Part shown: in pieces, positions 1,783 to 36,634 of the stretch
How the letters are laid out: each line of letters starts with the position of its first letter
Position numbering within the stretch: the first letter of the stretch is position 1
DNA from: an uncultured delta proteobacterium
GTDB lineage: Bacteria > Desulfobacterota > WTBG01 > CAIYCZ01 > CAIRTM01
DNA length: 36,634 nucleotides
Reading direction: 5' to 3'
Assembly: GCA_963804955.1 (NCBI GenBank)
Contig: CAWDSQ010000021.1
Coordinates: forward strand, 1 to 36,634
Notes under the pieces: model-generated
Told to the model about the DNA's origin: nothing
What the model saw: only the letters and a program-made list of their open reading frames with translations
Databases searched by the model: none
Program-made: the position numbers and the translations under genes

Positions 1783-4449
1783 TCAATGCGCTTCGCGCCA
1801 GTTATTGCCCCAGTTCACATCGACCTTCAGGGGCACGGACAGCTCCACAACGCCTTCCATGACGGTGCGCACAAGGGCGGCAAGCTTTTCCATCTCCGCC
1901 TCGGGCGCTTCAAACACCAGCTCGTCATGCACCTGCATGATCATGCGCGCCTGCAGGCTGCTCCCTCTCAAGGGCCGGGCCCATATGCAGCATGGCCATT
2001 TTTATAAGGTCTGCGGCCGTGCCCTGAATGGGGGCATTTATGGCTGTGCGCTCGGCAAACTTGCGCACGGCGCCATTGGTTGCGGTTATCTCGGGCAGGT
2101 AGCGCCGCCGGTTCATAAGCGTTGTCACATAGCCGTCTTTGCGGGCAGCCTCCAGCACGCCGTCGAGATAGTCGCGCACGCCGCGGTACTTGCGGAAATA
2201 ATCGTCGATATAGGCCTGAGCCGTGCGGCCGTCGATGCCCAGGGCCTTGCTCAGGCCAAATGAGCTCATGCCGTAGATGATGCCGAAGTTTATCACCTTT
2301 GCGTCGCGGCGCATGGTGGGGGTGACCAGTTCGGGCGTGACGCCCAGAATCTCCGAGGCCGTGCGGGTATGAATATCCTCATCCTTGCGGAAGGACTCGC
2401 ACAGGGTCTTGTCACCGGACATGTGCGCCAGTATCCGAAGCTCTATCTGTGAGTAGTCGGCAGACAGTATCTTCCAGCCCGGATCGCTGACAAAAGCCTC
2501 GCGTATGCGGCAGCCTTCATCGGTGCGAATGGGTATGTTCTGCAGATTCGGCTCGGAGCTGCTCAGCCGGCCCGTGGCTGTGACGGTCTGGTTATAGGAG
2601 GTGTGGATGCGGCCCGGTGGCCGGGTTTACCAGATCGGGCATATTGTCTATATAGGTTGATTTCAGCTTTGCAATGCTGCGGTATGCCAGCACCTGCTCG
2701 GGCAGCGGATGCAGATGGCCCAGCTCGTTTAAGGTCTCGACATCGGTGGCGTAGCCGGTCTTGGTTTTTTTCTGTACGGGAAGCCCGAGCTTTTCAAACA
2801 GCACCTCGCCGAGCTGCTTCGGGGAATTGATATTGAACTCGCAGCCCGCGATTTCGTAAATATTTTTCTCGATGCCGGCGATTTTTAAGCCGAATTCATC
2901 GGAGAGGCCGCGCAAATGCTCCATATCAACTTTCACGCCTACCATCTCCATCTGCGCAAGCACGGTGACCAGCGGCATTTCCAGATCATAAAAAAGTTTT
3001 TCAGCCTCTGCGGTTTTCAGCTGCGGCAGCAGCTTAGCCGCAAGCATGAGCGTGATATCGGAATCCTCGCAGGCATACTCAACAGCCTTGTCGATCGGCA
3101 CCTGGTCAAAGGTGATCATGCTTTTGCCCGAGCCTGCCACATCCTTAAACGAGATCATGCGGTGGTCGAGCTGATCAAGGGCCACGTCGTCAAGATTGTG
3201 CCGGTATTTTGACGGATTGATCACATAGGAGGCCACCATGGTGTCGCAGGCTATGCCCCGCAGCTCTATGCCGTAGCGCTTGAAAATGATGTATTCATAT
3301 TTAATATTGTGCCCGACTTTTTTTGGCGCCCCGTCCTCAAGCAGGGGCCGCAGCTTAGCTAGCAGCCGGCCCAGGTCCGGCTGGCCGGCAAGCCCCTGAT
3401 GGCCGACCGGTATATAGTAGGCTTCATGGTCCTGCACGGAAAAAGAAATGCCCACTATGTCTGCGCGCATGGCATCTATGGAGTTTGTCTCAAAATCAAG
3501 GGCAAAGGACGGGCAGCTGCGCAGCCGCGCAATGAGGGCGTCGATATCGGCAGCGCTGGTGAGCATGTGGTAGTTCTTGGTTGACAGGGGGGCAGCGGCA
3601 ACGCGATTCAAGCAGCTTTTTAAATTCAAATTTTTTATACAGGCCCCGCAGGGCCTCCTCATCGGGCTGCGGCAACTGGCAGTCGCTCCATGAAATGTCA
3701 AGGGGCACGGCCGTGTCTATGGTCACCAGCTGGCGGCTCAAATAGGCTTTCTCGCGGTTGGCAGCAAGGGCCTCTTTTGCTTTTTTCTTGGTGATGGCAT
3801 CAAGGTTTGCATATACGCCGTCAAGTGTGCCATAGGCTTTGATAAGCTCTGCTGCGGTCTTCTCGCCGATGCCGGGCACGCCGGGCACATTGTCGCTCTT
3901 GTCGCCCATGAGGCTGAATATCTCGATTATTTTTTCAGGCGGCACGCCGTATTTCTCCTGCACCTTCTCCGCGCCGGTCACGGTGCCGCGCATGGTGTCA
4001 AGCAGCGTGATGCGGTCGCTCACGAGCTGGCACATGTCCTTGTCGCCGGAAATGATCACCACGTCCAGGCCGGCGGCTTCTGCCTGCCGCGCCATGGTGC
4101 CGATCACGTCGTCGGCCTCAAAGCCCGGCTTCGCAACCGATGCGATGCTGAAGGCCGCAATGACATCCTTCATGTGGGGAATCTGTGCTGAAAGCTCATC
4201 GGGCATTTTCGGGCGGTGGGCCTTGTAGTCCTGATAGACCTCGTGCCGGAATGTGGGCTCGGGGCAGTCGAGCACCGCCGCCAGATAGTCGGGCTTCTGC
4301 TCCTTGAGCAGCTTCTGCAGCATGGTCGTAAAGCCGTAGATGGCATTGGTGGGCAGGCCCTCGGAGGTCGACAGCGGGGGCAGGGCAAAAAAAGCCCGGT
4401 AATAATATCCGCTCACGTCAATAAGATAGAGTTTTTTTCGCTCGGTCAT
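1783..4449 (-). CDS. polA: DNA polymerase I (three frameshifts near 3605, 2612 and 1975)
   Basis: 5'-3' exonuclease (LYLIDVSG, EADDVIGT, GDKSDNVPGVPGIGEKTA), 3'-5' exonuclease (DFET, GHNIKYE, DTMVASY), polymerase motifs (AKVINFGIIYG, QGTAADLIK, QVHDELVFE); ends WREAH. Confidence 0.97.
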
Positions 4450-4843
4450 GGCAGGCCCTTCAGGATGCAGGCCGGCATGCGAGCAGGCCCTGCAGTATTG
4501 TTTATAGTGAGGTTTTTGTTGATTCGGATTATGAGATTGAAAGTATACCAATTGCATGTTTCAGTCAAAGAAAAAGGGGCGGAGCATGATCCGGGCAGCC
4601 ATTCTGTTAAAATCACTGGGGCTTTATCATGTTCAGAATGACGATTCATTGCCATTGTTGCCGTAAACTGGAGCAATATCCTGCCGCGGCTGATTCTTTC
4701 GGCCTGCATGCTGTTGTTTTGTATTAGAAAATATGTTTGCAAAGCAAAAACCAGCGTGTATTATGAGATCGAGCATGACGAATTTTTATCTTTTGTTAAA
4801 AAATAGAAACTGTTTCACAGCGACATTTTTGAGGGCTTAAACA

Positions 4844-5071
4844 ATGCAGGCTATAAAAAAAATCATGGAAGTTGAAAAAGACAAAAGCATCAGCCTGAAA
4901 TCTCTTCCGTTCAAGCCGGGCAGCAGGGTTGAGGTCATCGTGATTCCCGCAACAGACCAGGCGAAGGACATTTTCAGTTTTATGGATACAGTGGTAAAAA
5001 ACAAAAAGATTGCTCCCCTCAGCACGAAACAGATTGAAAAGATAGTGCATGAAGTCAGAGCACGCAGATAA
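4844..5071 (+). CDS. Putative antitoxin (75 aa) paired with the downstream PIN toxin
   Basis: Small ORF overlapping the start of the PIN gene; N-terminal beta-type 'LPFKPGSRVEVIVIP' segment. Confidence 0.65.
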   Translation: MQAIKKIMEVEKDKSISLKSLPFKPGSRVEVIVIPATDQAKDIFSFMDTVVKNKKIAPLSTKQIEKIVHEVRARR

Positions 5072-5465
5072 AATAACAGTTGTCTTTGACACTACTGTGT
5101 TTATTTCCGGGTATCTCTGGAACGGCAAGGCCCGTGATGCCCTCCGCCAGGTAAGAAACAAAAAACACAGATTGCTTTATTGCCGGGAATTACTTGATGA
5201 ACTCATTAGGGTGCTTTCTTTAAAATTTCAGCTTGAAGTCTTTGTGGTTCATAACATAGTTCAGGATATCCATAATATCGGACACAGCATACCTATCATA
5301 TCTCGCGACGCACCGATCACTGCCGACCCAACCGATAATCTATTCATCAACCTTGCCCTCGACGGTAAAGCAGCCTGCATTGTCAGCGGTGATTCGCACC
5401 TCCTCAAATTAAAAAAGCACAAGGGCATTTCTATTGTTACGGTCGCTGATTTTTTGAAAATGTAA
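5049..5465 (+). CDS. PIN-domain (VapC-like, PIN_3 type) putative toxin
   Basis: VVFDTTVFISG, ELLDEL, DPTDNLFINLALDG and IVSGDSHLL acidic motifs. Confidence 0.88.
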   Translation: MKSEHADKITVVFDTTVFISGYLWNGKARDALRQVRNKKHRLLYCRELLDELIRVLSLKFQLEVFVVHNIVQDIHNIGHSIPIISRDAPITADPTDNLFINLALDGKAACIVSGDSHLLKLKKHKGISIVTVADFLKM

Positions 5466-5757
5466 GCTTTTCAGTCATTCCATCCGGACAAATTGGTTTT
5501 GCAGACTGCCCTTTAAAAGCAAACCAGAAATAAATAAGCAGTCCGGTCATAAGCAGCGAACAGCTGTTGCCGATGATGAAAATCAAATCCCCCACATGCA
5601 GGCAATATGCTTGCAGGAGCGCCAGCCCAATCATGAGCGTCATAAGGTAGGCAATGCTCAAATCCTGAGCCTGCCGTGTTCTGTAGGTCTTTATCACCTG
5701 CGGAATGGCGCTGGCGCAGATGATGATAGAACCTACCACGCCGATTGTCTCGATCAT
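5437..5757 (-). CDS. SemiSWEET / PQ-loop three-helix membrane transporter
   Basis: IPQVIKTYRTRQAQDLS PQ-loop, three hydrophobic helices, conserved Asn in IIGN. Confidence 0.85.
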   Translation of the reverse strand: MIETIGVVGSIIICASAIPQVIKTYRTRQAQDLSIAYLMTLMIGLALLQAYCLHVGDLIFIIGNSCSLLMTGLLIYFWFAFKGQSAKPICPDGMTEKLTFSKNQRP

Positions 5758-5868
5758 GTCATCTTCTTTCCATAAAGGTTTTCATTTAACTATTTAAGAG
5801 TATAATCGACTTCGATGACAACCGTTGGCATATTGACGTTGTATACTGTTAATCAGTTTGCTTTTTAT

Positions 5869-5952
5869 TTCCCCCTTTGGAAAAGGGGGATACAGGGGGA
5901 TTTATTTAACGCCGTGAACAAATCCCCCCAACCCCCTTTGCTAAAGGGGGAA
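5869..5952. repeat. CCCCCTTT-n-AAAGGGGG-n-GGGGGATTT inverted doublet repeat
   Basis: tccccctttggaaaagggggatacagggggattt ... aaatccccccaaccccctttgctaaaggggga; second copy at 19457-19536. Confidence 0.75.
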
Positions 5953-6171
5953 TTGTTGCGCCATCCCTTTTGATGGGCGGAGCGCTAAATAGACGCATGG
6001 CCGTACAAGGAGGATTTTATGGAACGAAGACAGGCAACCTTTTGACCAGATTTTTGACTTTCTTTTCCCTGATATAAAAATTCAGGGCAAAGAAGGTGAT
6101 GGCTGATGGTGTATAAAGATGCCCTGTATCAGGTGAAGGAGAAATAAGCGACCCCCGGGTGGCCGCCTTTG

Positions 6172-6621
6172 TCATTCAACAAAGACTGTCTTGAACCCCT
6201 GCCCGTGGGCTGTTTCAAGCTGCCTGCGGTCGGAGGTGACAAAGGGGAGGGAAATCCGCATAGCTTCCTGAAATATCAGCGCCGAGGCAATATGCAGGGC
6301 ATCAAGCGATCTGATGGGAGAGCCTGCGACGCTCTGCTCAACCTTAAAATAAAAAGGAGGACCTATTTTTCTTTTATAGATTTCTTTGCGGTGCCCCACG
6401 CGAAGAACGACAATATCATTGCCCTCCATGTCAAAAATCACGCGATAATCACCGATGCGGAAACGGTAGCCGCCAAGTTCCGAATTAGTCAACCGTTCGG
6501 CGTATTGGAGTAGGTTGTCTGTAAAACGAAGGAGGGTTGCGCCAAGACGCTTTTTCACAGCGGCATCAAACCGGGCAATGTCTCTGACGGCTTTCTGCGT
6601 ATAGACCAGCCGATAGCTCAA
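6172..6621 (-). CDS. RelE/ParE-family toxin (first ~85 aa) read in frame into the C-terminal half of a VapC/PIN protein
   Basis: YRLVYTQKAVRD...YRFRIGDYRVIF...VGHRKEIYK is RelE-like; RSLDALHIASAL...FVTSDRRQ is a PIN C-terminus. Confidence 0.85.
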   Translation of the reverse strand: MSYRLVYTQKAVRDIARFDAAVKKRLGATLLRFTDNLLQYAERLTNSELGGYRFRIGDYRVIFDMEGNDIVVLRVGHRKEIYKRKIGPPFYFKVEQSVAGSPIRSLDALHIASALIFQEAMRISLPFVTSDRRQLETAHGQGFKTVFVE

Positions 6622-6818
6622 TGCCCGAACACCTCATCATGCGTTGTAACACGGCCCGCCTTATAATCCGCCCGGGCCTCCTTGATGCTTTTCAAGTACT
6701 CGGGGGAGGTTGCGGCGAGCAGTTCTTCCAGAAAATCATCCCTGTCTTTTTTGTTCATTGACTTTACGGCGCCAATAATTTCTTGTCGGGATAAAGTAAC
6801 TTTAATCTCGTTGAGCAC
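6618..6818 (-). CDS. Putative antitoxin of the RelE toxin (66 aa)
   Basis: ATGA overlap with the toxin start; C-terminal SIKEARADYKAGRVTTHDEVF typical of RelE antitoxins. Confidence 0.75.
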   Translation of the reverse strand: MLNEIKVTLSRQEIIGAVKSMNKKDRDDFLEELLAATSPEYLKSIKEARADYKAGRVTTHDEVFGH

Positions 6819-7052
6819 GGGAAACCCCTTTCACTATTCTTGTTTAAGTGTAATCACTCATTTTAATATTTTATCATTTTTGACAACTGCCTGCAACCAT
6901 ACTCAGCGATACTGTATGCCATGCATAGGTTCAGCGAAGATATGGGTGGACACATGGGGACGCTGTAGACAAATCACACAAACCATGAACCCTGCGCCAA
7001 GCGTATCAAACCGCTACCTGTTGACTCCGGCTTCCGGTCGGGGGCTTTACTT

Positions 7053-7430
7053 CTACTTATCCAGGGCTTCAATAATGTTGGCTGTAACTGTTTCAAGAAT
7101 TTCAATGAGGGTAACTTCTCTTGATTCGGCAACACCGGCAGACGTGTGGATGTGGTGAGGAAAAGTTTTTAGCTCCCGATGATGGGGCGCAGAATCCCAC
7201 CGGCGGATGAGCTTATGATGCCGATCCATGAAATGGAAGCGATACTCTCTCTGGCTGGCAAAAAACATCTCTTTAAAGTGCAGTGCTGAGCCATCCTTAA
7301 ACTGAAGGGTGCCGCCGATCATACCGACATCAGCATCTTCATCATATTCGATTTCAACTGCTTCCCGCTCAATGAGCCATTTGAGACTTGCTATCCGCTT
7401 TTGTACTTTAGCAAAATATTTTTGGATCAT
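7053..7430 (-). CDS. DUF6516 / TumE-family toxin
   Basis: YRFHF...RRWDSAPHH.ELKTFPHHIH signature. Confidence 0.85.
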   Translation of the reverse strand: MIQKYFAKVQKRIASLKWLIEREAVEIEYDEDADVGMIGGTLQFKDGSALHFKEMFFASQREYRFHFMDRHHKLIRRWDSAPHHRELKTFPHHIHTSAGVAESREVTLIEILETVTANIIEALDK

Positions 7431-22784: not shown

Positions 22785-23925
22785 ATGGATTTTGAACTGA
22801 CGCGACAGCAGAAGCTTAGCCGCAAGATCGCCCGCGAATTTGCCGAGCGCGAGCTTGCCCCGTATGCCCAGCAGTGGGATGAGGAGATGGCCTTCCCTGC
22901 CGAGGCCATCAAAAAGATGGGCCCCCTGGGGTTCATGGGCATCAGCATACCAAAAGAGTATGAAGGTGCGGGTCTTGACGGCATCAGCTACTGCCTCATC
23001 ATCGAAGAACTGGCCCGCTGCTGCGCCTCCACCGCTATTATCGTCTCCGTGCACAATTCCGTGGGCGCCTATCCCATCTATGCTCTTGGCAATGAACAGC
23101 CAAAAACAGAAATACCTGCCCGACCTCTGCTCGGGCCGCAAGCTCGGGGCATTTGCCCTGACCGAGCCCAATGCAGGCTCAGACCCGGCCTCCCTTGAAA
23201 CCATGGCCGAGCCGCAAGGTGACCATTTCCTTCTAAACGGCGTGAAGACCTTCATCACCAGCGGCGGCACCTGCGATACCGTCATCGTCATGGCCGCCAC
23301 CAGACGGGAAAAAAAAAGCCGCGGCATTACGGCTTTTATTGTTGAAAAGGGAACCCCCGGCTTCAGTGTGGGCGCAAAGGAAAACAAGCTCGGCATACGG
23401 GCATCCGACACCTGCGAGCTTATCTTTGAAAACTGCCGCGTGCCCGCGGAAAACGTGCTGGGCGAAGTAGGCGCTGGACTGACTGCGGCACTTGGCGCCC
23501 TCACCTTCGGCCGCGTAGGCGTAGGTGCGCAGGCCCTGGGCGTTGCGCGCTGCGCCATGGAAGAATGCATTCGCTACAGCCAGGAGCGTAAGCAGTTCGG
23601 CAGGCCCATAGCAAGTTTTCAGGCCCTGCAGTGGATGATTGCCGACATGGCCACGCAGATCGAAGCTAGCCGCATGCTCATCTGCAAGGCGGCCTGGCTG
23701 AAAGACAACGGCAAGCCCTTTGCCACCGAGGCTTCCATGGCAAAGCTGTATGCATCAGAAGTGGCTATGCATGCGGCCACCAAGGCCATACAGATACACG
23801 GCGGCTACGGCTGCATGAAAGACTATAAGGTGGAGCGCTGCTTCCGCGATGCCAAGGTGATTGAAATTTATGAAGGCACCTCGGAAATCCAGCGCCTGAT
23901 TATTGCGAGAAATACGATAAAATAA
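22785..23925 (+). CDS. Acyl-CoA (butyryl-CoA-type) dehydrogenase (one frameshift near 23100)
   Basis: GAFALTEPNAGSD, NGVKTFIT, KLGIRASDT, RKQFG, QIHGGYG, IYEGTSEIQR. Confidence 0.93.
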
Positions 23926-23945
23926 CCGGCAAGCATTTGCGTAAA

Positions 23946-24019
23946 CAGGGCGGGTTAAACCCACCATTTATGCAAGCCAATGAATTCGGTGGGTTCCACT
24001 TCGTTGCACCGCACCCTAC
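23946..24019. repeat. REP doublet (REPIN-like), same family as 33633-33704
   Basis: agggcgggttaaacccacc ... ggtgggttccacttcgttgcaccgcaccctac. Confidence 0.7.
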
Positions 24020-24037
24020 GGAATGCCAAAGATAAAA

Positions 24038-24836
24038 ATGAGCGCCCTAAATATCATCGTCACCATCAAGCAGGTCCCCGACACCGCCGAGGTGCGCATC
24101 GACCCCAAAACCAATTCGCTCATGCGCGAAGGCGTGCCGAGCATCATCAATCCCGAAGACCGCAATGCCCTGGAAGCAGCGCTTGTGCTGCGTGAGGCCC
24201 ACGGCGGCACGGTCACGGCACTTTCCATGGGGCCGCCGCAGGCGCGTGATGCTTTGGAAGAAGCACTCTGCATGGGCGCGGACCGGGCGATACTTTTATC
24301 CGACCGGGCCTTTGCCGGCGCCGATACCCTCATCACCGCGTTCACGCTCTCGCGGGCAATCATGAAAATCGGCAAAGTATGATCTTATACTCGCCGGCCG
24401 CCAGGCCATCGACGGCGACACAGCCCAGGTCGGGCCCCAGATTGCCGGTTTTCTTGACCTGCCGCAGGTCACCTACGCGGAAGGCCTTGAGATTCAAAAG
24501 GGTGGGACGCTTGTCGTGCAGCGCGGACTAGAGGACAGCACGCAGTGGGTTCAGGTCAAACTGCCGGCTCTTGTCACCGTCACGGGCCGCATCAATCACC
24601 CTCGCTACCCGAGCCTGTACCATGTTGCAGACTCCTGCGATGATGCAAAGATAAAAACCTGGACAGCCAAAGACCTGCAATTGCCGCAGGCCATGCTCGG
24701 CCTTGGCGCCTCGCCTACAACGGTGAAAAAGATTTTCGAGCCCGACCGCAAGATGAAGGGCGAAATGATTCCGGGCGATGAACGGGAGATGGCGACGGCG
24801 CTGATTGGAAAACTGAAAGAGATGCATGTAATCTAG
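24038..24836 (+). CDS. etfB: Electron transfer flavoprotein beta subunit (one frameshift near 24375)
   Basis: KQVPDT, INPEDRNALE, LSMGPPQA, SDRAFAGADT; after removing one A, YDLILAGRQAIDGDTAQVGPQ. Confidence 0.93.
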
Positions 24837-24864
24837 TAGGGGCGGTTACGCGAACCGCCCCTAC
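24836..24864. repeat. GTAG-type REP palindrome
   Basis: gtaggggcggtt-acgcg-aaccgcccctac, perfect 12-bp arms, overlapping the etfB TAG stop. Confidence 0.8.
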
Positions 24865-24892
24865 GGCAGAACTCACATAAAGACCAAAACCC

Positions 24893-26075
24893 ATGATCCA
24901 ACTTGTTCCTGAAAAATGTATCGGCTGCAAACTGTGCGTGAAGGCATGCCTGTTCGGCGGGATTGCTGTTGACGGCAAAGTGCCGCGGCTCACTGATTCG
25001 TGCACGGGCTGCGGCGCCTGCGTCGATGTCTGCCGCGTGGAGGCCATTATCGCCAGCGGTGAAAAAACCGGCCCGGTATGCGATCTTGCCGCCTATAAAG
25101 GGGTCTGGGTGTTTGCCGAGCAGCATGCAGGCAGACTGAACAGCGTGACGCTTGAGTTGCTTGGGAAAGCACGCGAGCTTGCCGATGCCAGAGGCGCTGA
25201 AGTGACAGCCGTGCTGCTGGGCAGCGGCGTTGCGGCACTGGATGGCGAACTTTTCCGGCATGGCGCCGACCGCGTGCTGCTGGCCGAAGCCCCGTTTCTT
25301 GCAGACTACCGCACCGCGCCCTATGAGCGCATCGTGGCCCACCTCATAGTGGAGCATAAGCCCGAAATCATCCTTATCGGCGCAACAACCACGGGCCGCG
25401 ACCTTGCACCCCGGCTTGCCAACCGCCTTCGAACGGGCCTTACCGCCGACTGCACCGGTCTTGAGATAGGCCCGGACGGAGGGCTTGCTGCAGACGCGCC
25501 CGGCTTTCGGCGGCAATATCATGGCAACCATTGCTACGCCCAATCACCGGCCGCAAATGGCAACTGTGCGGCCCGGCGTGATGCAGGCAAAAACATGTGA
25601 CGGCAGAACAGGCACAACCACAGCTATAGCGGTTTCGGAAGAGCCCGGCGATAGCCTCGTTCAAATCCTTAAGGCTCTTGCGCGAGAGAAAAGCGCCGTA
25701 TCTCTTGAAAAGGCCGAAGTGATTGTTTCGGGCGGCCGCGGCATGGGCGACCCGAAAAACTTCAAGCTTCTGGCAGAGCTGGCGGGGCTGCTGTCGGGCG
25801 AGGTGGGCGCATCGCGCGCAGCAGTGGATCTTGGCTGGATGCCGCATGACCATCAGGTGGGCCAGACCGGCAAAACCGTCAAGCCCCGCATCTACATCGC
25901 CTGCGGTATATCAGGCGCTGTTCAGCACTTGGCAGGAATGCAATCTTCTGATATCATCATCGCCATCAACCGCGATCCGGCGGCCCCGATTTTTCAGGCT
26001 GCCACCTTCGGCATGGTGGGAGATGCTTTAAAAATAATTCCGGAACTTATCAGCCAACTCAATGTTCATAGTTAA
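24893..26075 (+). CDS. etfA: Electron transfer flavoprotein alpha subunit with N-terminal 2x[4Fe-4S] ferredoxin domain (one frameshift near 25485)
   Basis: CIGCKLCVKAC and CTGCGACVDVC; GLTADCT, TRPAFGGN, SGGRG, QVGQTGK, GISGAVQH. Confidence 0.93.
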
Positions 26076-26089
26076 AGAAGGAGGTCGCC

Positions 26090-26728
26090 ATGAAAAAACA
26101 GTTTTCAGTTCTGTGTCTGATGCTTGCACTTGGGGTATTTTTCCTCTCTGCCTCACCCGGCTATTGCTACCGCGAAAAGCCTGATGCCGTTATCGAAGAC
26201 AGCTGCACCGCGGGCGTCAAAAAAATTCTTGTTACCTATGACACAAAGCATGGTGCAACATCAGTCGTTGCCAAAAAGGTTTTTGACACGCTCTGCGACA
26301 ATGCCTCTGTTGATCTGGTTTTTGTGGAAAATCTTGATCCTGCAGAAATACCTAATTATGACGCCATCGTGATCGGCAGCCCCATTTATATCGGCAAATG
26401 GCTGCCCGGCATAAAAAAGCTTTTGAAAAGGCACCATGAAGCTATCGAGACGCTCCCCTTTGCTTTTTTCATAACCTGTACCTATATCGGTGAAGACACC
26501 CCCGAGCGGCAGGCGTATGCGAAAGAAACGTATGTTGAAAAAAATCTGGCAAAATATACCGATGTGCAGCCGCTGGATATAGGCATATTGGGAGGACAAT
26601 TTACATTTGACGAACTGTACCCCGTAGAGCTTTTTCTTATGAAGCTTGCAAAATTTGAAGAAGGCGATTTTATCGATAATGCTACAATCGAGACCTGGGC
26701 AAAGGGGGCAGCTGAGCAGCTGCTTTAG
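26090..26728 (+). CDS. Flavodoxin-fold (HemG/Flavodoxin_5-like) protein with signal-peptide-like N-terminus
   Basis: ILVTYDTKHGAT, YDAIVIGSPIY, GDF....I..WA; MKKQ + hydrophobic stretch; AGGAGG RBS. Confidence 0.8.
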   Translation: MKKQFSVLCLMLALGVFFLSASPGYCYREKPDAVIEDSCTAGVKKILVTYDTKHGATSVVAKKVFDTLCDNASVDLVFVENLDPAEIPNYDAIVIGSPIYIGKWLPGIKKLLKRHHEAIETLPFAFFITCTYIGEDTPERQAYAKETYVEKNLAKYTDVQPLDIGILGGQFTFDELYPVELFLMKLAKFEEGDFIDNATIETWAKGAAEQLL

Positions 26729-29668: not shown

Positions 29669-30148
29669 TTATTTCGGAAACATTCCCCAGAGCCGAACCG
29701 TGCCGTCGTCCACTGCCACCACCTGGCCTGTGGCATTCAATGCGCAGTGCTGTGTGAAACCAGTGCATACAATGCTTCCGGTTTCGCCATGCGTGATACT
29801 ATAATCAAAGCGCACTTTCACCCGCTCGATCTCCGCCGGCCGGGTGTACACCCACATGGGATCATCATAATACAGGGGCTCATAAAATTTTATGCCAAGG
29901 TCGACGATGGGATACACATACCCTTTTGCCTCTATTTCTTTGTACGGATAGTCGGCCTCGCGCATGAGCGAGGTACGGCCGAATTCAAAATAGCGCAGAT
30001 AATTGGCATGGTACACAACGCTTGACCTGTCCGTATCGGCATAGAGCGTACGCTGCCAGCAGCGGTGCCAGACAAGGCCGGTCTCCAAGTCGCGCTGATA
30101 GATGCCGGAATCTGCAAGCGCTTCAGGTCTGAATGGTTTTGGTTTCAT
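29669..30148 (-). CDS. Hotdog-fold acyl-CoA/ACP thioesterase (YbgC/4HBT family)
   Basis: YADTDRSSVVYHANYLRYFEFGR motif. Confidence 0.88.
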   Translation of the reverse strand: MKPKPFRPEALADSGIYQRDLETGLVWHRCWQRTLYADTDRSSVVYHANYLRYFEFGRTSLMREADYPYKEIEAKGYVYPIVDLGIKFYEPLYYDDPMWVYTRPAEIERVKVRFDYSITHGETGSIVCTGFTQHCALNATGQVVAVDDGTVRLWGMFPK

Positions 30149-30149
30149 A

Positions 30150-31415
30150 TTACATGCCCCTGAATACGATGCAGCAGTTCGTGCCGCCAAAGCCGAATGC
30201 GTTTGAGAGCGCTATTTCATAGTTCTGTTTTCGTGCAGCGTTGGGCACGAAGTCAAGGCCGTCATACTGGGGATCATGCAGATAATTTATTGTCGGCAGA
30301 AGCATCCCCTGCCGCATGGCTTCGATGGTCAGCGCCGCTTCAATGGCAGCCGTCGCGCCAAGGCTGTGGCCGAGCTGCGATTTGTTTGAAGATATGGGGA
30401 TATGTGCAAGCCCCTTCCCGAACACCGTTCGCAAGCACTCAATCTCAGCTGCGTCACCCGTGGGCGTTGATGTGCCATGGGCATTGATATACTGGACATC
30501 CGCCGCTGTCAAGCCGGCATCGTCAATGGCATCGACAATCGCCCGGATCACGGTCTCTTTGTTTGGCCGGATGAAATGGTGGGCATCCGATGTCCAGCCC
30601 ACGCCAAGAACCTCGGCCTTTGAGTTAAGGCCATAGGCCGCAAGCATTTCCTCTGCCGCAAGAACCAGCACGCCGCCGCCCTCGGAAAGCACAAACCCCT
30701 TGCTGTCGATGCTGAAAGGCCGCGAGGCCTGACCGGGGTCGGCAAAAGCCCGGTCACGCTCATTTATTTTTATAGTGGCGTTCATGTTGGCAAAGCCCTG
30801 TATGATCTCGGGCATGAGCGGCATCTCCACCCCGCCTGCCAGCACAAAGTCGCAGTCGCCATCGCGGATCATACGCGCCCCCAGGCCGATGGCATGGTTG
30901 CCCGAGGCACATGCCCCCTGCGGCGAAAATATGGGGCCGGTGAATCCAAGCAGCATCCCCGCCTTGCCCGCAGGCACATTGGCGCAAAGGTTTGGCAGCA
31001 GATAGGGGCTCACCTTCAGGGGGCCCCGCTCTTTCAGGTTATCCACAGCCACGCGCATGGCATCAGAGCCGTTGATGGCTGATCCGATGAGGCATGCCGT
31101 GCGCGGGCCGGTATCTTTGTTCATCTCAAGTCCGGCGCTTGCAAGCGCCTCCTTGCATACGGCCATAGTGAGCATCACAAACGCGGCATTCCAATTATAG
31201 ACTTCCTTTTTGGTGGTAAAATCAAAACCTTCCGGGTTCCAGTCCGGTATCTCGCCCACCACATCGGCAGGGGTCTTTACCTCGCAGCGGCTGACTTTAC
31301 GGAACCCGGCCTCGCCGTGCACCGCGCGCTGCCAGGTCCGGGCAAAGTCCAGCCCCAGCGGCGTCGCCGCTCCGTAGCCGATCACAAACACGCGTCTGTT
31401 CTTTGGTGCTTTCAT
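30150..31415 (-). CDS. Beta-ketoacyl-ACP synthase (FabF-type KS 2)
   Basis: GACASG, NAHGTST, KSQLGHS, NAFGFGGTN. Confidence 0.92.
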   Translation of the reverse strand: MKAPKNRRVFVIGYGAATPLGLDFARTWQRAVHGEAGFRKVSRCEVKTPADVVGEIPDWNPEGFDFTTKKEVYNWNAAFVMLTMAVCKEALASAGLEMNKDTGPRTACLIGSAINGSDAMRVAVDNLKERGPLKVSPYLLPNLCANVPAGKAGMLLGFTGPIFSPQGACASGNHAIGLGARMIRDGDCDFVLAGGVEMPLMPEIIQGFANMNATIKINERDRAFADPGQASRPFSIDSKGFVLSEGGGVLVLAAEEMLAAYGLNSKAEVLGVGWTSDAHHFIRPNKETVIRAIVDAIDDAGLTAADVQYINAHGTSTPTGDAAEIECLRTVFGKGLAHIPISSNKSQLGHSLGATAAIEAALTIEAMRQGMLLPTINYLHDPQYDGLDFVPNAARKQNYEIALSNAFGFGGTNCCIVFRGM

Positions 31416-31552: not shown

Positions 31553-32239
31553 TTACTCTTTCAACAGCATGCACTGGTATTTTGTTGTTATTATAGGGAC
31601 CTCTTTCTTGCCGGCAAGAAATTCATCAATAGCTTTTTTTACCCCCGGACAGCCCCTCCACTCATAATCATCAAACACCATAACTCCGCCGGATACCATC
31701 CTCGGATAGAAAAATTCCATGCAGTTCTTTACGGATTGGTAAATATCCACATCAACATAGACAAAGCAAAATTTTTTATCTTTGACCGTCTCTGCCGTTT
31801 CAGGAAAAAATCCAGGGTGAAACACAACATTGCTGCAGTCGCTGAGAAAACTTTTTACTGCTTCTATGGAAGTATCCAAAAAATCACCTTTGCTGTGAAC
31901 ATCTATTCCGCACACCACATCAGGCATCCCTGCAAAGGTATCAAAAATATGGACCTTTTTTTGGGGACAGGTTTTAGAAATTATTTTCGCTGTCCCGCCT
32001 TTGTAGACACCGACCTCCGCCATGTCTCCATCTTTGCCAGCGGCGTATTTGGCCATTTGATACAGCATAAAACACCGGTCCTGTGAGACCAAAGTGCGAG
32101 TTTCCATTTCTTTGAATACCTGCTGAAAAAAACCACTGTTGCTCCACGGTTCAGGCAACATCCGATCATATGTTTTTACCTGCAAACCAGCAAATTGAAA
32201 AATCTTTTTTACCGCCTTCTCAATTTTTGAATGGTTCAT
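31553..32239 (-). CDS. TylF/MycF/NovP-family SAM-dependent O-methyltransferase
   Basis: GDMAEVGVYKGG, FDTFAGMP, GFFPET, VDVDIY, GGVMVFDDY, GVKKAIDEF. Confidence 0.88.
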   Translation of the reverse strand: MNHSKIEKAVKKIFQFAGLQVKTYDRMLPEPWSNSGFFQQVFKEMETRTLVSQDRCFMLYQMAKYAAGKDGDMAEVGVYKGGTAKIISKTCPQKKVHIFDTFAGMPDVVCGIDVHSKGDFLDTSIEAVKSFLSDCSNVVFHPGFFPETAETVKDKKFCFVYVDVDIYQSVKNCMEFFYPRMVSGGVMVFDDYEWRGCPGVKKAIDEFLAGKKEVPIITTKYQCMLLKE

Positions 32240-32333
32240 TGCTTTCAACCTTTTGATTCAAGAGTTTGCAGCATGCGCATCGCGCACCATTTTGCTGCAG
32301 CAGATTTATCGTTATTGCATTCACAGCATCATA

Positions 32334-33587
32334 CTATGCCACGCGCCGCAGGACAATACAGGAATTGCATCCGCCGAAGCCGAAGGCGTTTTTCAACACA
32401 TGCTCCTGCTGTAGTTTCCGAGCGCCTTCGGCTACGCAGTCAATTTCAATTTCCGGATCGGGAGTGTAATTGATGGTGGGCAGCAGCGTGTCGGCCAGCA
32501 TGCCCTCCATGGCAAATATTGTTTCAATGGCGCTTGAAGCGCCCATGGCATGGCCGGTCTGCGACTTGTTGGCGCTCACCGGCGGTATACGGCCGCCAAA
32601 TATCTCTTTAAGTGCATCGGCCTCGACTTTATCACCGACCTTTGTCGATGTGCCGTGGGCATTGACTGCGGCAATGTCAGCAGGGGCAAGGCCTGCATGC
32701 TCGATGCTCTGGCTGATGCAGCGCTTAACGGTTTCAAAATTCGGTGCAACGAAATGGTGGGCATCGGAGGTCATGGCCCAGCCTGCCATCTCGATTTTAG
32801 GCATTAGGCCGTGAGCTTGGGCAAAAGCTTTTGTGGCGATAATCATGCAGCCCGCACCTTCGGCAACCACAAACCCCCGGCGGTTTATTGAAAACGGACG
32901 GCTTGCCTTTTCCGGCGGCTCATGTTCCTGCCCCTCTTTGGGATGGTAGGCGCCGTTCATGGTGGCAAACCCGCCGACGATCGGCTCGACAAGGGCAAAA
33001 TCAACAGCGCCGCAGATGACCACATCGGCCATGCCCTGCTGCAGCATCATGGCGCCTGCTATCATGGAGGTTGCGCCCGTGGCGCAGGCGGTAATGGTTG
33101 CCATGATGGGGCCGGTGGCGCCGGTCATGATGGATACTTTGCCGCCGACCATATTGATGCATGAGTTGGGATTGGTGAAGGGATGGGGCAGTTTATTCTT
33201 ATCATTTAAAAGCCTGTCGGCGCTGATGACCGCGTCGAGGCCGCCGACAGCTGAGCTGAACGTGATGCCCACGCGGGGAGCAAGGTCAGGCGAAATAACG
33301 ATGCCGCTTTTTTCAAGGGCCCGGTGTACGGTGAGAAGGCCGTATTTAAAAATGGGTGAGGTAAAGAGCGCCATGTCGCGCGAGGTGAGATAGGGATAGG
33401 GCGTCAGATCAATATCCGCCACCTGCCCTGCGATGCGAACGGGAAAATTTTCGCGAAGGGGAAAGCGCGTGAGCGGCCCGATGCCGCTTTCGCCAGCGCA
33501 GGCCCGCTGCCACTGGCCGGCAAGATCAGTACCGAGGGCTGATACGGCATCGTAGCCGAGTATGACCGGGAGGGAATCATTGCGCAT
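32334..33587 (-). CDS. Beta-ketoacyl-ACP synthase (FabF-type KS 1)
   Basis: TACATG, NAHGTST, KSQTGHA, NAFGFGGCN. Confidence 0.92.
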   Translation of the reverse strand: MRNDSLPVILGYDAVSALGTDLAGQWQRACAGESGIGPLTRFPLRENFPVRIAGQVADIDLTPYPYLTSRDMALFTSPIFKYGLLTVHRALEKSGIVISPDLAPRVGITFSSAVGGLDAVISADRLLNDKNKLPHPFTNPNSCINMVGGKVSIMTGATGPIMATITACATGATSMIAGAMMLQQGMADVVICGAVDFALVEPIVGGFATMNGAYHPKEGQEHEPPEKASRPFSINRRGFVVAEGAGCMIIATKAFAQAHGLMPKIEMAGWAMTSDAHHFVAPNFETVKRCISQSIEHAGLAPADIAAVNAHGTSTKVGDKVEADALKEIFGGRIPPVSANKSQTGHAMGASSAIETIFAMEGMLADTLLPTINYTPDPEIEIDCVAEGARKLQQEHVLKNAFGFGGCNSCIVLRRVA

Positions 33588-33632: not shown

Positions 33633-33704
33633 GCAGGGTGGGTGAACCCCACCACTATTGCGAATGACAAAAAACGGTGGGTTCCGCTTCGCTGCACCCA
33701 CCCT
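33633..33704. repeat. REP doublet (REPIN-like), same family as 23946-24019
   Basis: gcagggtgggtgaaccccacc ... ggtgggttccgcttcgctgcacccaccct. Confidence 0.72.
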
Positions 33705-33755
33705 TCTCCCAGCTACAGCCTACAGGCTCTGATAGCCTAACAGCCTGTTTGCCGC

Positions 33756-34756
33756 TCACCAGGGAATAAAGCGGTAGAGCTTGGCAAACATCTCGTACAC
33801 CTCTATCCAGCTCTTAAGATCATCGGCTGTTTTGAGATGCTCTTTCTTATTGACCATGACCCAGCTCATATGCGCCGCGCCGTCTTTGCAGGTGGAGCAG
33901 TCGCGCGTGGCAGAGGTGCAGCAACGGTGCATGGTCTGCAAGATCAGCGGCCCAGCGGATGAAGCGAATAAGGCGCTTGGGCTGAGGGTTGCGCGTGTCC
34001 ATGGGCTCGGTCACCGAGGGGCATTCAAGCCACCCGAAACGGCTGCCCATCATCATGCCCGTGGTGATGATTTCGTGATAGTATTTGCAGGAGATAAGCG
34101 TTTCCGGGTAGGCATCAAGAAGGGCATCCATCTCGGCGCGCACATCTTTGAGCTGCTGCTCATTCCACGAGAACCCGTCGACCTCTTCGTCATTTGACAG
34201 AAGTTGCAGATGCACTTTCAGCCCGACGTCTTGTATCTTCTTGACCATGCGGTCGATGCGGCCGAGTTGTTTCGGGGTGATGGTGTAGAGATAGTAGGTA
34301 TAGGGGTCGCCGGCATAGTTACGGCTTGAAACGGCAAAGGTATCTTTGCCGCGCAGCAGCTTTTCATCCTCCTCATCGCCCCAGAGCGATATGCCAACCA
34401 TCAGATCGGGAAAACGGTCGCGCGGCACCTTGATCTGGCCATTGCTGGCACAGAAGGTGGGCAGGCGCTTGTAGAAGGCGTCTATCCGGTCAAGACAGAG
34501 CGTGGGCTCGCCGCCGATGAGAATGGCAAGGTTGACGCCGCGCTCTTTTTCCCGCTCCACAAAGGCTTCCCAGGCGGCAATGCTCATCTCCTCGGGCGCG
34601 GCCTGATCTTCATCGGATGAAAAAAAGAAGCAGCCCTTGCACCGCAGGTTGCAGCGGTTTGTAACATCGTAGATGGAGCTTCGGATATTGAGGCTTGCTA
34701 TGCGCTTGTAGCGCGCATACCAGTCCTTGATCGAGCATTGAGCTTATGAGTTGCAT
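33756..34756 (-). CDS. Radical SAM enzyme B (frameshifts near 34727 and 33941)
   Basis: Reconstructed MQLISSMLD/DWYARYKRIASLNIRSSIYDVTNRCNLRCKGCFFF (CX3CX2C, missed by the ORF track), IGGEPTL, ASNG, and C-terminal CP...CCTSATRDCSTCK. Confidence 0.88.
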
Positions 34757-34855
34757 AATTATAATCTGTAGCTGTGCGCATAGACTGTAGGAGTGTGCAT
34801 TCAGCCGCGAAACCATCGCGCTTAATTGCGCTCTAAAACAAATTGAAAGTGCGCC

Positions 34856-35942
34856 CTACGCACATCTGCAAACACTCACACTCTGCGGCGGCTCAACAGG
34901 CCCGCGGCAGAGGTTCTCTCCTTTTTCATACCCCGTGACCCAGACGGCAAGATAGGTATCCACATAATCAAGCCATGCTTTGAAGGTATCAGGATCGGTT
35001 GCATGGCGGTAGAGCTTTGAGGTTACCACGGCGCTGCCTGCGGCATAATGCCTGCAATCGGCGCAGTCCGTATCAGGCACGCAGCAGGACGCGCTGCGGT
35101 CCCAGGTCAGATCCGAGCGGTACTGCCGGAATGAACGCCCCAGGCCGATATCGGCTGACTGGTTCATGCGCGGATACGGGCAGCCGTAGAGCCTGTGCAG
35201 CCCCAGCCGGTGCGAGTGGGCAACAGCGCTGTAGGGCGAAAAAAACATCTGCCGCGGATATGCGGCCAGCAGCTCAAGCATGGCCCTTCGCATCCGGGCA
35301 AGCGACGTCTTGCGTGTGCCGCAATGCTCCGGTGTAGCCGACCGGCGCAGAGAACACATTGAAGGTGACCTTGCAGTCATGTGCTGCAAGAAGGTCGATC
35401 ACCGGGCCTGCTTCATCGATATTGTCATGCGTAAAGGTATACACAAACACGGTCCGGCTGTCGCCCCGGTAATTATCCAGCTGCTTCTCAAGCATATCCT
35501 TCTGTTTGCGCACCCGCAGGCTTGTGGCGTCATTTCCCCAGACCGACACGTGAATCTTGTGCCCCACCGATTGTTCGATACGCTTCACCCCGTTGGTGGC
35601 AATGCAGCCAAGCGGAATCTCGTCATAACAGGCCTGCAGAAGCTCGGGAACAAGGGCAGGCTCGGCACCGGCCAGCACCACGAAGGTGATGCCGCGTGCC
35701 TTCTCGTCGCGCATAAGCTTGCGCCAGGCTTGAGGGTCGCCCTTGTCGGCTGTAAACTGCTTGTCGCCGGCATAGTAGTAGCAACCGTCGCACCGGATAT
35801 TGCAACGGTGGGTCATGTCATAGGTTGATTCGCGCAGGAAGAAATACGTGCGCACCCGCTCCCAGCGTTCGCGCACGGCAGGCTCTGCAAGCAGGTCGGC
35901 AAATCTGTATTTCGGGGTCGAGGAGGGCTGTTCTGCGCTCAT
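34856..35942 (-). CDS. Radical SAM enzyme A (frameshift near 35310)
   Basis: YDMTHRCNIRCDGCYYY (CX3CX2C), AGAEPAL, ATNG, and C-terminal CP...CCVPDTDCADCR. Confidence 0.88.
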
Positions 35943-35957
35943 AATGCGATGGGCGTA

Positions 35958-36230
35958 TCAGGCTTTTGCCTGAAGCCGCTCCTGAATATAGCCCGCTATA
36001 AGGCGTATGGCGCGCAGTTTGGGATAGTCGTCCTCATCGATCTTGACGGCGTACTCATCCTGCAGCACCAGCACGATGGTGGCAAGGTCCATGCTGTCGA
36101 TACCGATTTCATCCACAAGATCAAGATCAGGATCAAACGTTTCCGCCGTGATATCCTGCAGCTTCAGTTCGCTGATTATGATTTGCGCGACACGCAGCTG
36201 AAGCTCTTTTTCATTAATACCAGCAGACAT
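35958..36230 (-). CDS. Acyl carrier protein 1
   Basis: 90 aa, acidic, GIDSMDL motif; GGAGG RBS. Confidence 0.9.
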   Translation of the reverse strand: MSAGINEKELQLRVAQIIISELKLQDITAETFDPDLDLVDEIGIDSMDLATIVLVLQDEYAVKIDEDDYPKLRAIRLIAGYIQERLQAKA

Positions 36231-36243
36231 TCAACCTCCTTCA

Positions 36244-36633
36244 TTAACAGACAGTTGTTTTATTATCAGAGTATCCGGCAAGCGGCTCAAGATGTATGAT
36301 GCCGGTGCAGGCCGCCTCGCCGGCCAGCAGAATCGTGAAAGCATATAAGACCCCGCTTTCCTTCTGTTCGCGCTTGAGCGCCAGCGTAAAGGGCTCATCA
36401 GGCCGGACCGGCTTTTTAAACCGTACCCTTTTTACAGCTTTCAGCCGTATGCGATGCCCCCCGCCCGCCTCTTTTTCCCTCGCAGCGTCAAAGGCCATGG
36501 CAATCATGGCGATGCCGGGCAGTATCGGCTGGCCGGGGAAGTGCCCGTCAAACCATGGGGACCCGGCAGGCGCTGCCGCGCGGGCTTCCAGGCTGTCTTC
36601 ATGTATACTGCCAATTTCAAGTTTTTGCCAGAC
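36244..36633 (-). CDS. Hotdog-fold 3-hydroxyacyl-ACP dehydratase (FabZ/ApeI-like), 5' end outside the window
   Basis: Frame is open to the window edge: ...SPWFDGHFPGQPILPGIAMI...VRFKKPVRP. Confidence 0.8.
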   Translation of the reverse strand, partial: VWQKLEIGSIHEDSLEARAAAPAGSPWFDGHFPGQPILPGIAMIAMAFDAAREKEAGGGHRIRLKAVKRVRFKKPVRPDEPFTLALKREQKESGVLYAFTILLAGEAACTGIIHLEPLAGYSDNKTTVC

Positions 36634-36634
36634 T

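Follow-up and report, generated by a model that had tools for sequence, protein, structure and literature searches.

A conserved pair of Twitch-like radical SAM paralogues in a carrier-protein-based lipid gene module of an uncultured delta proteobacterium

The closest described systems to the gene pair that we report here are the radical S-adenosylmethionine (SAM) enzymes with SPASM or Twitch domains, and the 'ladderane-like' gene clusters of type II fatty acid synthesis (FAS II). The pair, which we call genes A and B, lies near the right end of a 36,634-nucleotide stretch of DNA from an uncultured delta proteobacterium (assembly GCA_963804955.1, contig CAWDSQ010000021.1). We refer to this whole stretch as the window; it is the entire contig C21 of the 36 contigs in the assembly. 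In the relevant part of PMC6231123, the SPASM domain is a seven-cysteine motif, CX9-15GX4C-gap-CX2CX5CX3C-gap-C, that holds two auxiliary clusters, while Twitch is a truncated form with one cluster, built as a beta-hairpin followed by a helix. The auxiliary cluster of the Twitch enzyme SkfB is ligated there by CX33CXC (Cys351, Cys385 and Cys387), whereas A and B have the spacing C-x(31-33)-CC-x(5-6)-C-x2-C. A and B have no RiPP recognition element (RRE) domain and, in contrast to the group of SkfB, BtrN, MoaA and BlsE, sit among acyl carrier protein (ACP) and ketosynthase genes rather than peptide or sugar genes. The seven-cysteine motif of the SPASM enzymes, such as anSME, SuiB, CteB and PqqE, is absent from A and B, which have four or five C-terminal cysteines in another spacing. 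Tetraether synthase works on isoprenoid lipids that are already in the membrane, with no ACP. A and B also score far under the 450-bit cut-off of that family (Tes, or GDGT-MAS; structures 7tol and 7tom).

The gene context brings in the second kind of system. Like the cluster in this genome and its relatives, 'ladderane-like' and aryl-polyene-like FAS II clusters hold several FabF-like ketosynthases, several ACPs, an ApeI/FabZ-like dehydratase, a polysaccharide deacetylase, a B12-type radical SAM gene of family TIGR04072 and a phytoene-desaturase-like gene (the last in the related locus L002). However, the A/B pair has so far been associated with no product, be it a ladderane or another compound. 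FAS II-like clusters with 'SAM radical' genes are described as common to Kuenenia and some Deltaproteobacteria in part of Rattray 2009 (PMC2649909), and such clusters, which antiSMASH labels 'ladderane' in non-anammox phyla, are among those listed for metagenome-assembled genomes (MAGs) of Desulfobacterota and Myxococcota (10.1101/2022.12.20.521206). The gene list given for the Kuenenia cluster in PMC4790861 runs FabZ, ACP, FabG, radical SAM, radical SAM, ligase, FabF, methylase, FabF, FabF, ACP and a deacetylase-like gene. The pertinent section of a 2026 review (PMC13459092) calls radical SAM chemistry on ketoacyl (fatty-acid-type) lipids almost unknown. Our literature search, with subscription journals and supplements outside its scope, found no description of a B12-less paralogous pair or of its cysteine motif.

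We conclude that A and B are probably two functional genes which stem from an old duplication within a single unnamed radical SAM family, and that the three frameshifts which they carry in the window are most likely errors of the assembly. The genes and their motifs are as follows.

34856..35942, minus strand: radical SAM gene A, ATG at 35942 and stop at 34856, about 361 amino acids if intact; covered by open reading frames (ORFs) 35274-35942 and 34856-35389
35781-35804, minus strand: CX3CX2C of A (CNIRCDGC), the radical SAM [4Fe-4S] site, from motif location
35658-35669, minus strand: GAEP of A, which takes the place of the GGE SAM-binding motif
35054..35185, minus strand: C-terminal cysteine set of A, candidate auxiliary-cluster ligands (GCPYP at 35171-35185 and CCVPDTDCADC at 35054-35086)
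33756..34756, minus strand: radical SAM gene B, ATG at 34756 (MQLISS...) and stop at 33756, 332 amino acids if intact, from translation
34630-34653, minus strand: CX3CX2C of B (CNLRCKGC), sharing its frame with ORF 33847-34587
34504-34515, minus strand: GGEP of B
33888..34026, minus strand: C-terminal cysteine set of B (ECPSV at 34012-34026 and CCTSATRDCSTC at 33888-33923)

The first piece of A is 87% identical to the 354-residue orthologue P0122, and B is 92% and 88% identical to the orthologues P0001 and P0002. A B-type protein, DSCW_27820, is also known from the cultivated Desulfosarcina widdelii. An earlier, sequence-only reading of this DNA had described A and B as diverged paralogues on the strength of colinear peptide blocks, all of which we find in the minus-strand translation of 33700-36000. 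The relationship is borne out by direct comparison and by phylogeny. The A piece in the window matches the B region with 28% identity over 176 residues (E 2e-21), and two intact orthologues, P0128 (354 residues, A type) and P0001 (346 residues, B type), which share a contig as judged by its length of 19218 bp, align over 339 columns with 27% identity (E 5e-36). Similarity of this degree is well outside what chance would give. A quick maximum-likelihood tree was built from 62 rows, these being representatives at 50% identity plus a few A and B orthologues, with six truncated or frameshifted-looking rows excluded. The A clade, which includes the distant sequence P0249, and the B clade, which includes P0257, P0305 and a 'CCTSGxC' group, each have a Shimodaira-Hasegawa-like approximate likelihood ratio (SH-aLRT) support of 100, and the two are united at 95 against a third clade of 43 rows. 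Since each paralogue falls in its own supported clade, with relatives closer to it than the other paralogue is, the duplication is old. Orthologues are 59-99% identical among themselves for A and 74-100% for B. At E <= 0.001 the two pieces have 1926 and 2007 database homologues, while a joint A+B profile run against 1.84 billion representative sequences retrieved 3320 proteins at this threshold, 421 at 1e-10 and 141 at 1e-30.

Conservation of the cysteines is the second line of evidence. From the listed close homologues we removed truncated rows and a single frameshifted row, so that the alignments comprised 115 rows for A and 118 for B. The three cysteines of CX3CX2C are invariant in both (115/115 and 118/118), and the C-terminal cysteines are kept in all 118 B rows and in 114-115 of the 115 A rows. 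A sixth cysteine is shared in part (LGC-IATNG in A, TYC-ATNG in B); all 118 B orthologues have it, as do 85 of the 115 for A. The wider family was sampled by aligning 60 representatives of 320-440 residues with two references, 62 rows in all, numbered after P0122. Within this set C286 is present in 61 of 62 representatives, C287 (the second cysteine of the 'CC') in 42, C293 in 59 and C296 in 60. A further cysteine lies 18-45 residues before the C286 equivalent in 58 of the 61 rows that have that equivalent, with a spacing that is clade-specific: 31-32 residues for the A clade, 33-37 for the B clade and 20-24 for the third. The family signature thus consists of four cysteines, C-x(20-37)-C-x(5-8)-C-x2-C, of which the A/B form is C-x(31-33)-C(C)-x(5-6)-C-x2-C, and four family-wide cysteines are enough for one fully ligated cluster. 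From these positions, the four conserved C-terminal cysteines would most likely hold one auxiliary [4Fe-4S] cluster. The last three lie closer together here than they do in BtrN. The sequence-only reading had assigned five shared extra cysteines to an auxiliary iron-sulphur cluster; their conservation in homologues and the predicted folds speak for a cluster of this kind, while four of the five, without the second cysteine of the 'CC', are family-wide. The same reading noted GAE in A in place of the usual GGE. This is not special to A, and G-A-E is the majority form of the family (41/62 representatives, versus 19/62 for G-G-E). Because both paralogues retain every cysteine of the SAM cluster and of the candidate auxiliary cluster, both copies look catalytically whole from their residues and neither looks like a dead partner.

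Curated models say little beyond the superfamily. The Pfam model PF04055 (Radical SAM) matches only the N-terminal part of the domain in both proteins, with 34.2 bits for the B piece against a gathering cut-off of 29.5. Apart from this generic model and Fer4_12, no Pfam or NCBIfam family fits A or B, and at E <= 0.1 Pfam gives no SPASM match in either. NCBIfam yields only weak N-terminal matches, to NirJ, Tes, ScmE, MoaA and others, the best at 32.6 bits against a cut-off of 400. TIGR04072 is absent for A and B among the best 25 of the 27 and 50 matched families, where the scores reach at most 32.6 bits against a cut-off of 360. It had been argued earlier that neither protein has room for an N-terminal B12 domain, and this is indeed the case: the first cluster cysteine stands at position 47 of A and at position 35 of the 332-residue form of B, and the B12-binding domain PF02310 has no match in either at E <= 0.1.

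We modelled both proteins with AlphaFold2 from 138-row alignments, using the orthologue P0122 for A and P0001 for B; the mean predicted local distance difference test (pLDDT) scores were 92.8 and 95.5. The predicted core is a partial (beta/alpha)6 barrel in each model, and both folds are best matched by structures of the Twitch/SPASM group. The best matches are SkfB (6efn) and BlsE (7vob), followed by viperins, SuiB, anSME, DesII, ChlB, CteB, MoaA and GDGT-MAS. Identity to any solved chain is 12-20% and no match stands out, so the fold does not name the function. By sequence profile the sole notable relative of solved structure is SkfB (E 1.9e-17, core only). Pfam, NCBIfam and this profile search together place neither A nor B in a characterised subgroup with a non-lipid substrate. 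The alignment of the A model with SkfB ends at A residue 294 and SkfB residue 387, which would place C293 and C296 near the last ligands of SkfB. C-terminally the models have short strands and then helices (A 273-274 and 280; B 248-253 and 281-292), and the SkfB and BlsE alignments reach model residues 294 and 334. We file A and B as Twitch-like, with an atypical cysteine spacing, rather than as SPASM proteins.

The third line of evidence is the company that the genes keep. When one genome per species was scanned, a relative was encoded at no fewer than 575 loci. Of these, 80 were kept for counts, and B directly follows A in all 80. The titles of the kept loci name Syntrophales/Smithella, Desulfobacterales, Spirochaetes/Leptospirales and Myxococcota MAGs. 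On the minus strand of the window the order is dehydratase, ACP, A, B, ketosynthase, TylF-type methyltransferase, ketosynthase, 4HBT thioesterase, ACP, ketosynthase and PlsC-type acyltransferase. The neighbours, with their frequency at the related loci, are listed below; C4 is a second contig of the same assembly that continues the cluster.

36244..36633, minus strand: ApeI/FabA-like dehydratase (PF07977, PF22818), cut at the contig end and complete on C4; a dehydratase lies upstream in 70/74 loci
35958..36230, minus strand: acyl carrier protein ACP1 (PF00550), upstream of A and 15 bases away from it; of the 75 loci with room, 72 have an ACP no more than 600 bases upstream of A
32334..33587, minus strand: ketosynthase KS1, FabF-like (Pfam), downstream of B; within 1.2 kb of B in 61/64 loci
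31553-32248, minus strand: TylF-type O-methyltransferase, between the two ketosynthases; in 0/80 loci
30150..31415, minus strand: ketosynthase KS2, FabF-like (Pfam); a second ketosynthase lies downstream in 50/54 loci
29669..30190, minus strand: 4HBT-type thioesterase (Pfam; TIGR00051 above cut-off), the end of the conserved module; a thioesterase lies downstream in 50/54 loci

The conserved module is thus dehydratase, ACP, A, B, ketosynthase, ketosynthase and thioesterase. The TylF-type methyltransferase has no counterpart at any related locus among these 80 and appears to be an insertion into this module that is specific to the lineage. About 10 kb is available on either side at 42 loci, of which 23 have a TIGR04072-like gene, 33 a deacetylase and 30 a ketosynthase/chain-length factor (KS-CLF) gene, which indicates that the A/B module is often, but not always, joined to a larger cluster.

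The distribution of the module is uneven. Of 401 genomes sampled evenly across the phylum, 31 gave a match at E <= 1e-20, a number that includes the genome of the window. Among the other 30, 29 have an A-type gene, and a B-type match adjoins it in 28 of these. The module occurs in none of the eight other genomes of the window's family, in one of two genomes of the sister family and in five of six genomes of one distant family; this patchiness suggests horizontal spread. One distant A-like protein, P0249 (L082 10001-11252), is encoded in a locus of polysaccharide type, with a GT61 glycosyltransferase, sulfotransferases and a GDP-mannose dehydratase, and has an ACP gene directly after it.

What might A and B do? 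Each protein would have a (beta/alpha)6-type radical SAM core in which the CX3CX2C cluster cleaves SAM to a 5'-deoxyadenosyl radical, and a short Twitch-like C-terminal extension that would hold one auxiliary [4Fe-4S] cluster. A and B would each abstract hydrogen, at a step of their own, from an acyl or polyene chain on the ACP of the module, and the auxiliary cluster would move the extra, second electron. Candidate reactions are an oxygen-free dehydrogenation or desaturation, or the formation of a carbon-carbon bond, which by analogy would be the classes most in line with Twitch enzymes. The product might then enter a glycerolipid via the PlsC-type acyltransferase of the cluster. What the analysis shows is paralogy, motif conservation, a predicted fold class and a gene order, from which we infer cluster binding, an ACP-bound substrate and sequential action. 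The intact cysteines in both proteins, the constant neighbours (a private ACP, a dehydratase, two ketosynthases and a thioesterase) and the terminal glycerolipid acyltransferases speak for a separate radical step by each enzyme on an ACP-held chain. The substrate is most likely an ACP-bound acyl chain, and ACP1 is its likely carrier. Tentatively, and with somewhat less than even confidence, we propose that A and B are the core of an undescribed, oxygen-independent functionalisation of a carrier-bound fatty or polyene chain. This would take place in two radical steps, desaturation or ring and carbon-carbon bond formation, each with a Twitch-like auxiliary cluster. The end product, in Syntrophales, Desulfobacterales and some lineages of spirochaetes and Myxococcota, would be an as yet unidentified membrane lipid.

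Several points weigh against this proposal. The literature search described above found no biochemical datum on any member of the family. The auxiliary cluster is plausible but unproven, as the cysteine spacing is neither that of BtrN or SkfB nor that of the SPASM motif, and the confidence of the A model is lowest around the C-terminal cysteines (means of 75-84 in blocks of ten residues). The N-terminal piece of A scores 26.2 bits with PF04055, under the cut-off, while the intact A orthologue in L002 scores 29.9. Finally, no ACP lies near G038 (L113 8898-10022), whose surroundings are the only ones inspected for the third clade. G038, the sole third-clade member in the 401 genomes, is found beside DnaE2-like, ImuB-like and glucose/sorbosone dehydrogenase genes. 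A tie of the whole family to ACPs was considered and rejected because of this member, and the ACP link is therefore limited to the A and B clades.

The alternative that survives best, though we regard it as doubtful, is that A and B form an obligate heterodimer, as the KS/CLF pairs of such clusters do: one enzyme that either has two active sites or combines a catalytic with a scaffolding subunit. The strict adjacency of the genes at all 80 loci fits such a pair, but it fits sequential steps too. Their co-occurrence in 28 of the 29 other sampled genomes with an A-type gene points the same way, as does an old duplication in which both copies are strongly constrained. A scaffolding role sits poorly with the retention of every SAM-cluster and auxiliary cysteine in both copies, and obligate pairing with the single members of the family that stand alone elsewhere, namely P0249 and G038. 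A prediction of the A+B complex returned 'no answer' with a score of 0.00 (mark 0.32), which counts neither for nor against binding.

It is also conceivable, though unlikely, that the substrate is not an acyl-ACP at all and that A and B act on a protein or peptide (e.g. the ACP or a ketosynthase), a sugar or a head group, like most SPASM and Twitch enzymes of known function. The nearest structures are peptide maturases (SkfB, SuiB and CteB), a sulfatase maturase and enzymes of sugars and nucleotides (BlsE, DesII, viperin and MoaA); the polysaccharide-type locus of P0249 and the polysaccharide deacetylase within 10 kb at 33 of the 42 long loci lean in the same direction. That said, A and B have no RRE-type N-terminal domain, with a core that starts from about residue 35, and their invariant partners are ACP, ketosynthase, dehydratase and thioesterase. 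Even P0249 is followed by an ACP gene.

The reading of A and B as functional genes must also account for their state in this assembly, where A is broken once and B twice, i.e. three frameshifts in 2.1 kb. The intact locus L001 has 84-90% DNA identity with the window, whose coding parts have, by comparison, exactly three inserted bases, each a single-base insertion.

about 35305-35307: insertion in A, relative to L001 and contig C4
34728: first insertion in B, between the start and 'DWYARYK', relative to L001 and contig C4
about 33939: second insertion in B, before 'QTMHRCC', relative to L001

The sequence-only reading had explained the failure of B to show up as a radical SAM gene among the ORFs by frameshifts that separate its CX3CX2C. 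This proved incorrect in detail: the motif is in frame with the 246-residue ORF of B, upstream of the first ATG of that ORF, and the real shift lies further upstream, between the true start ATG at 34756 and 'DWYARYK'. The right end of the window (34191-36634) overlaps the end of contig C4 (L081 12057-14498) over 2.44 kb with 96.2% identity, 79 mismatches and 14 gap columns. The two contigs, both of the same assembly, are either an unmerged overlap with a poor consensus or two strains in one bin. C4 has neither the insertion at 35307 nor that at 34728, but its gene A has two insertions that the window does not share. In short contigs assembled from further public sequencing runs, there is one base fewer at 33941 (X1) and at 34726 or 34730 (X1, X2 and X3); these runs represent relatives of the source rather than the source itself, the best of them holding 0.17 of the window's words. 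Unrelated genes are split as well, with DNA polymerase I (PolA) spread over three ORFs (1928-4557) and the alpha subunit of the electron transfer flavoprotein (ETF) over two (24893-26072). A PP-loop protein at 611-1117 is truncated. The assembly appears to hold roughly one indel per kilobase.

Two of these sites are less well served, which tells against the explanation by assembly error. The insertion at about 33939 falls outside the overlap with C4, and positions 35305-35307 are thinly covered in the other runs, where one 169-base X4 contig over 35268-35437 has three letter differences and one gap, the gap being unplaced. Taken together, the split polA and ETF-alpha genes, the absence of two of the insertions from C4 and of all three from L001, and the missing base in other runs lead us to read the frameshifts as assembly noise; as judged from these sequence comparisons, assembly error is the most likely origin of all three.

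If the frameshifts were real, A and B would be true pseudogenes of a decaying cluster. Besides the density of the breaks, the patchy occurrence of the cluster, which is carried by none of the eight other genomes of the same family, could be taken in this sense, as could a relative from the same order, G289, in which A is likewise in two pieces. We consider decay improbable, since the neighbouring ketosynthase, thioesterase and ACP genes are intact, housekeeping genes unrelated to the cluster such as polA are split too, and the indels of C4 differ and sit elsewhere. Moreover, the single-base insertions aside, the translated pieces share 87% (A) and 92% (B) of their residues with intact orthologues and contain no in-frame premature stops. 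The copy in the window is an ordinary member of the A/B pair.

The upstream part of the cluster lies on contig C4. It encodes a B12-binding radical SAM protein, a UbiE-like methyltransferase, a U32-like protein, an ACP, a frameshifted ketosynthase with a Ketoacyl-synt_2 partner, a polysaccharide deacetylase and a 290-residue protein without assignment. One gene of this set ties the cluster to a named family.

L081 3756-5105, plus strand: B12-binding radical SAM protein with a B12-binding domain; TIGR04072 'rSAM_ladder_B12' at 406.6 bits against a cut-off of 360

With this match, the cluster of this genome is formally tied to the 'ladderane-type' family of lipid clusters. Features of an aryl-polyene-type context are present as well, namely an ApeI-like dehydratase, a ketosynthase with a Ketoacyl-synt_2 partner, a 4HBT thioesterase and an acyltransferase, with matches to PF22818 (32.1 bits, cut-off 28.5), PF13723, PF13279 and PF01553. 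In L002, where the cluster is complete, there are in addition a phytoene-desaturase-like gene, another B12 radical SAM gene, a phosphopantetheinyl transferase (PPTase) gene and PlsY.

It is very improbable that A and B are the counterparts of kuste3342 and kuste3343, two 'SAM radical' genes that stand side by side in the anammox ladderane-candidate cluster (DP1853 and DP1855 in Desulfotalea): the published Kuenenia gene order, where the relevant parts of PMC4790861 and PMC2649909 give it, resembles the order here and the B12-type radical SAM protein of this genome passes TIGR04072, but the A/B module has no TIGR04072-like gene within 10 kb at 19 of the 42 long loci. For the Kuenenia genes themselves, the portion of Javidpour 2016 (PMC4790861) concerned with expression records that the kuste3342 and kuste3343 proteins were not detected in E. 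coli. Our own searches for an anammox link came back without one. The genome scan gave only close A-type loci, with no Planctomycetota titles among the loci kept, while a metagenome scan with P0249 found one locus, of the polysaccharide type. The ESM Atlas clusters were only 'Thermodesulfobacteriota' and 'Pseudomonadota', and a PDB search with the two methyltransferases and the dehydratase of the cluster had only generic methyltransferase and dehydratase chains as its top matches.

Some further genes in and around the cluster deserve mention. Inside the cluster on C4, L081 6049-7239 (plus strand) encodes a 397-residue protein that matches peptidase U32 weakly and ends in a C-terminal CEETFCDDCRYC group; it has no counterpart at the 42 long loci. 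U32 relatives include oxygen-independent hydroxylases, and this protein may be another anaerobic tailoring enzyme. In the window, on the other strand and beside the acyltransferase of the cluster, positions 22840-26728 encode an acyl-CoA dehydrogenase, the beta and alpha subunits of ETF (with a ferredoxin domain) and a Flavodoxin_5 protein, which may be electron donors for the radical SAM enzymes or may be unrelated to them. A low-GC stretch at 5049-7430 holds three genes of toxin-antitoxin type, for a PIN domain protein at 5049-5465, a ParE-like toxin at 6172-6621 and a TumE-like toxin at 7053-7430.

In summary, the A/B family is an uncharacterised, Twitch-like radical SAM variant tied to an ACP-based lipid module. 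Conservation of the pair is very strong, and no fewer than 575 species-level genomes carry it. The window contributes one more member, with a methyltransferase insertion specific to its lineage and a distribution that is patchy in its own family. If A and B do act on acyl-ACP, they would represent a new reaction class in anaerobic lipid biosynthesis, and they could account for a biomarker lipid, so far unassigned, of sulfate-reducing and syntrophic bacteria.

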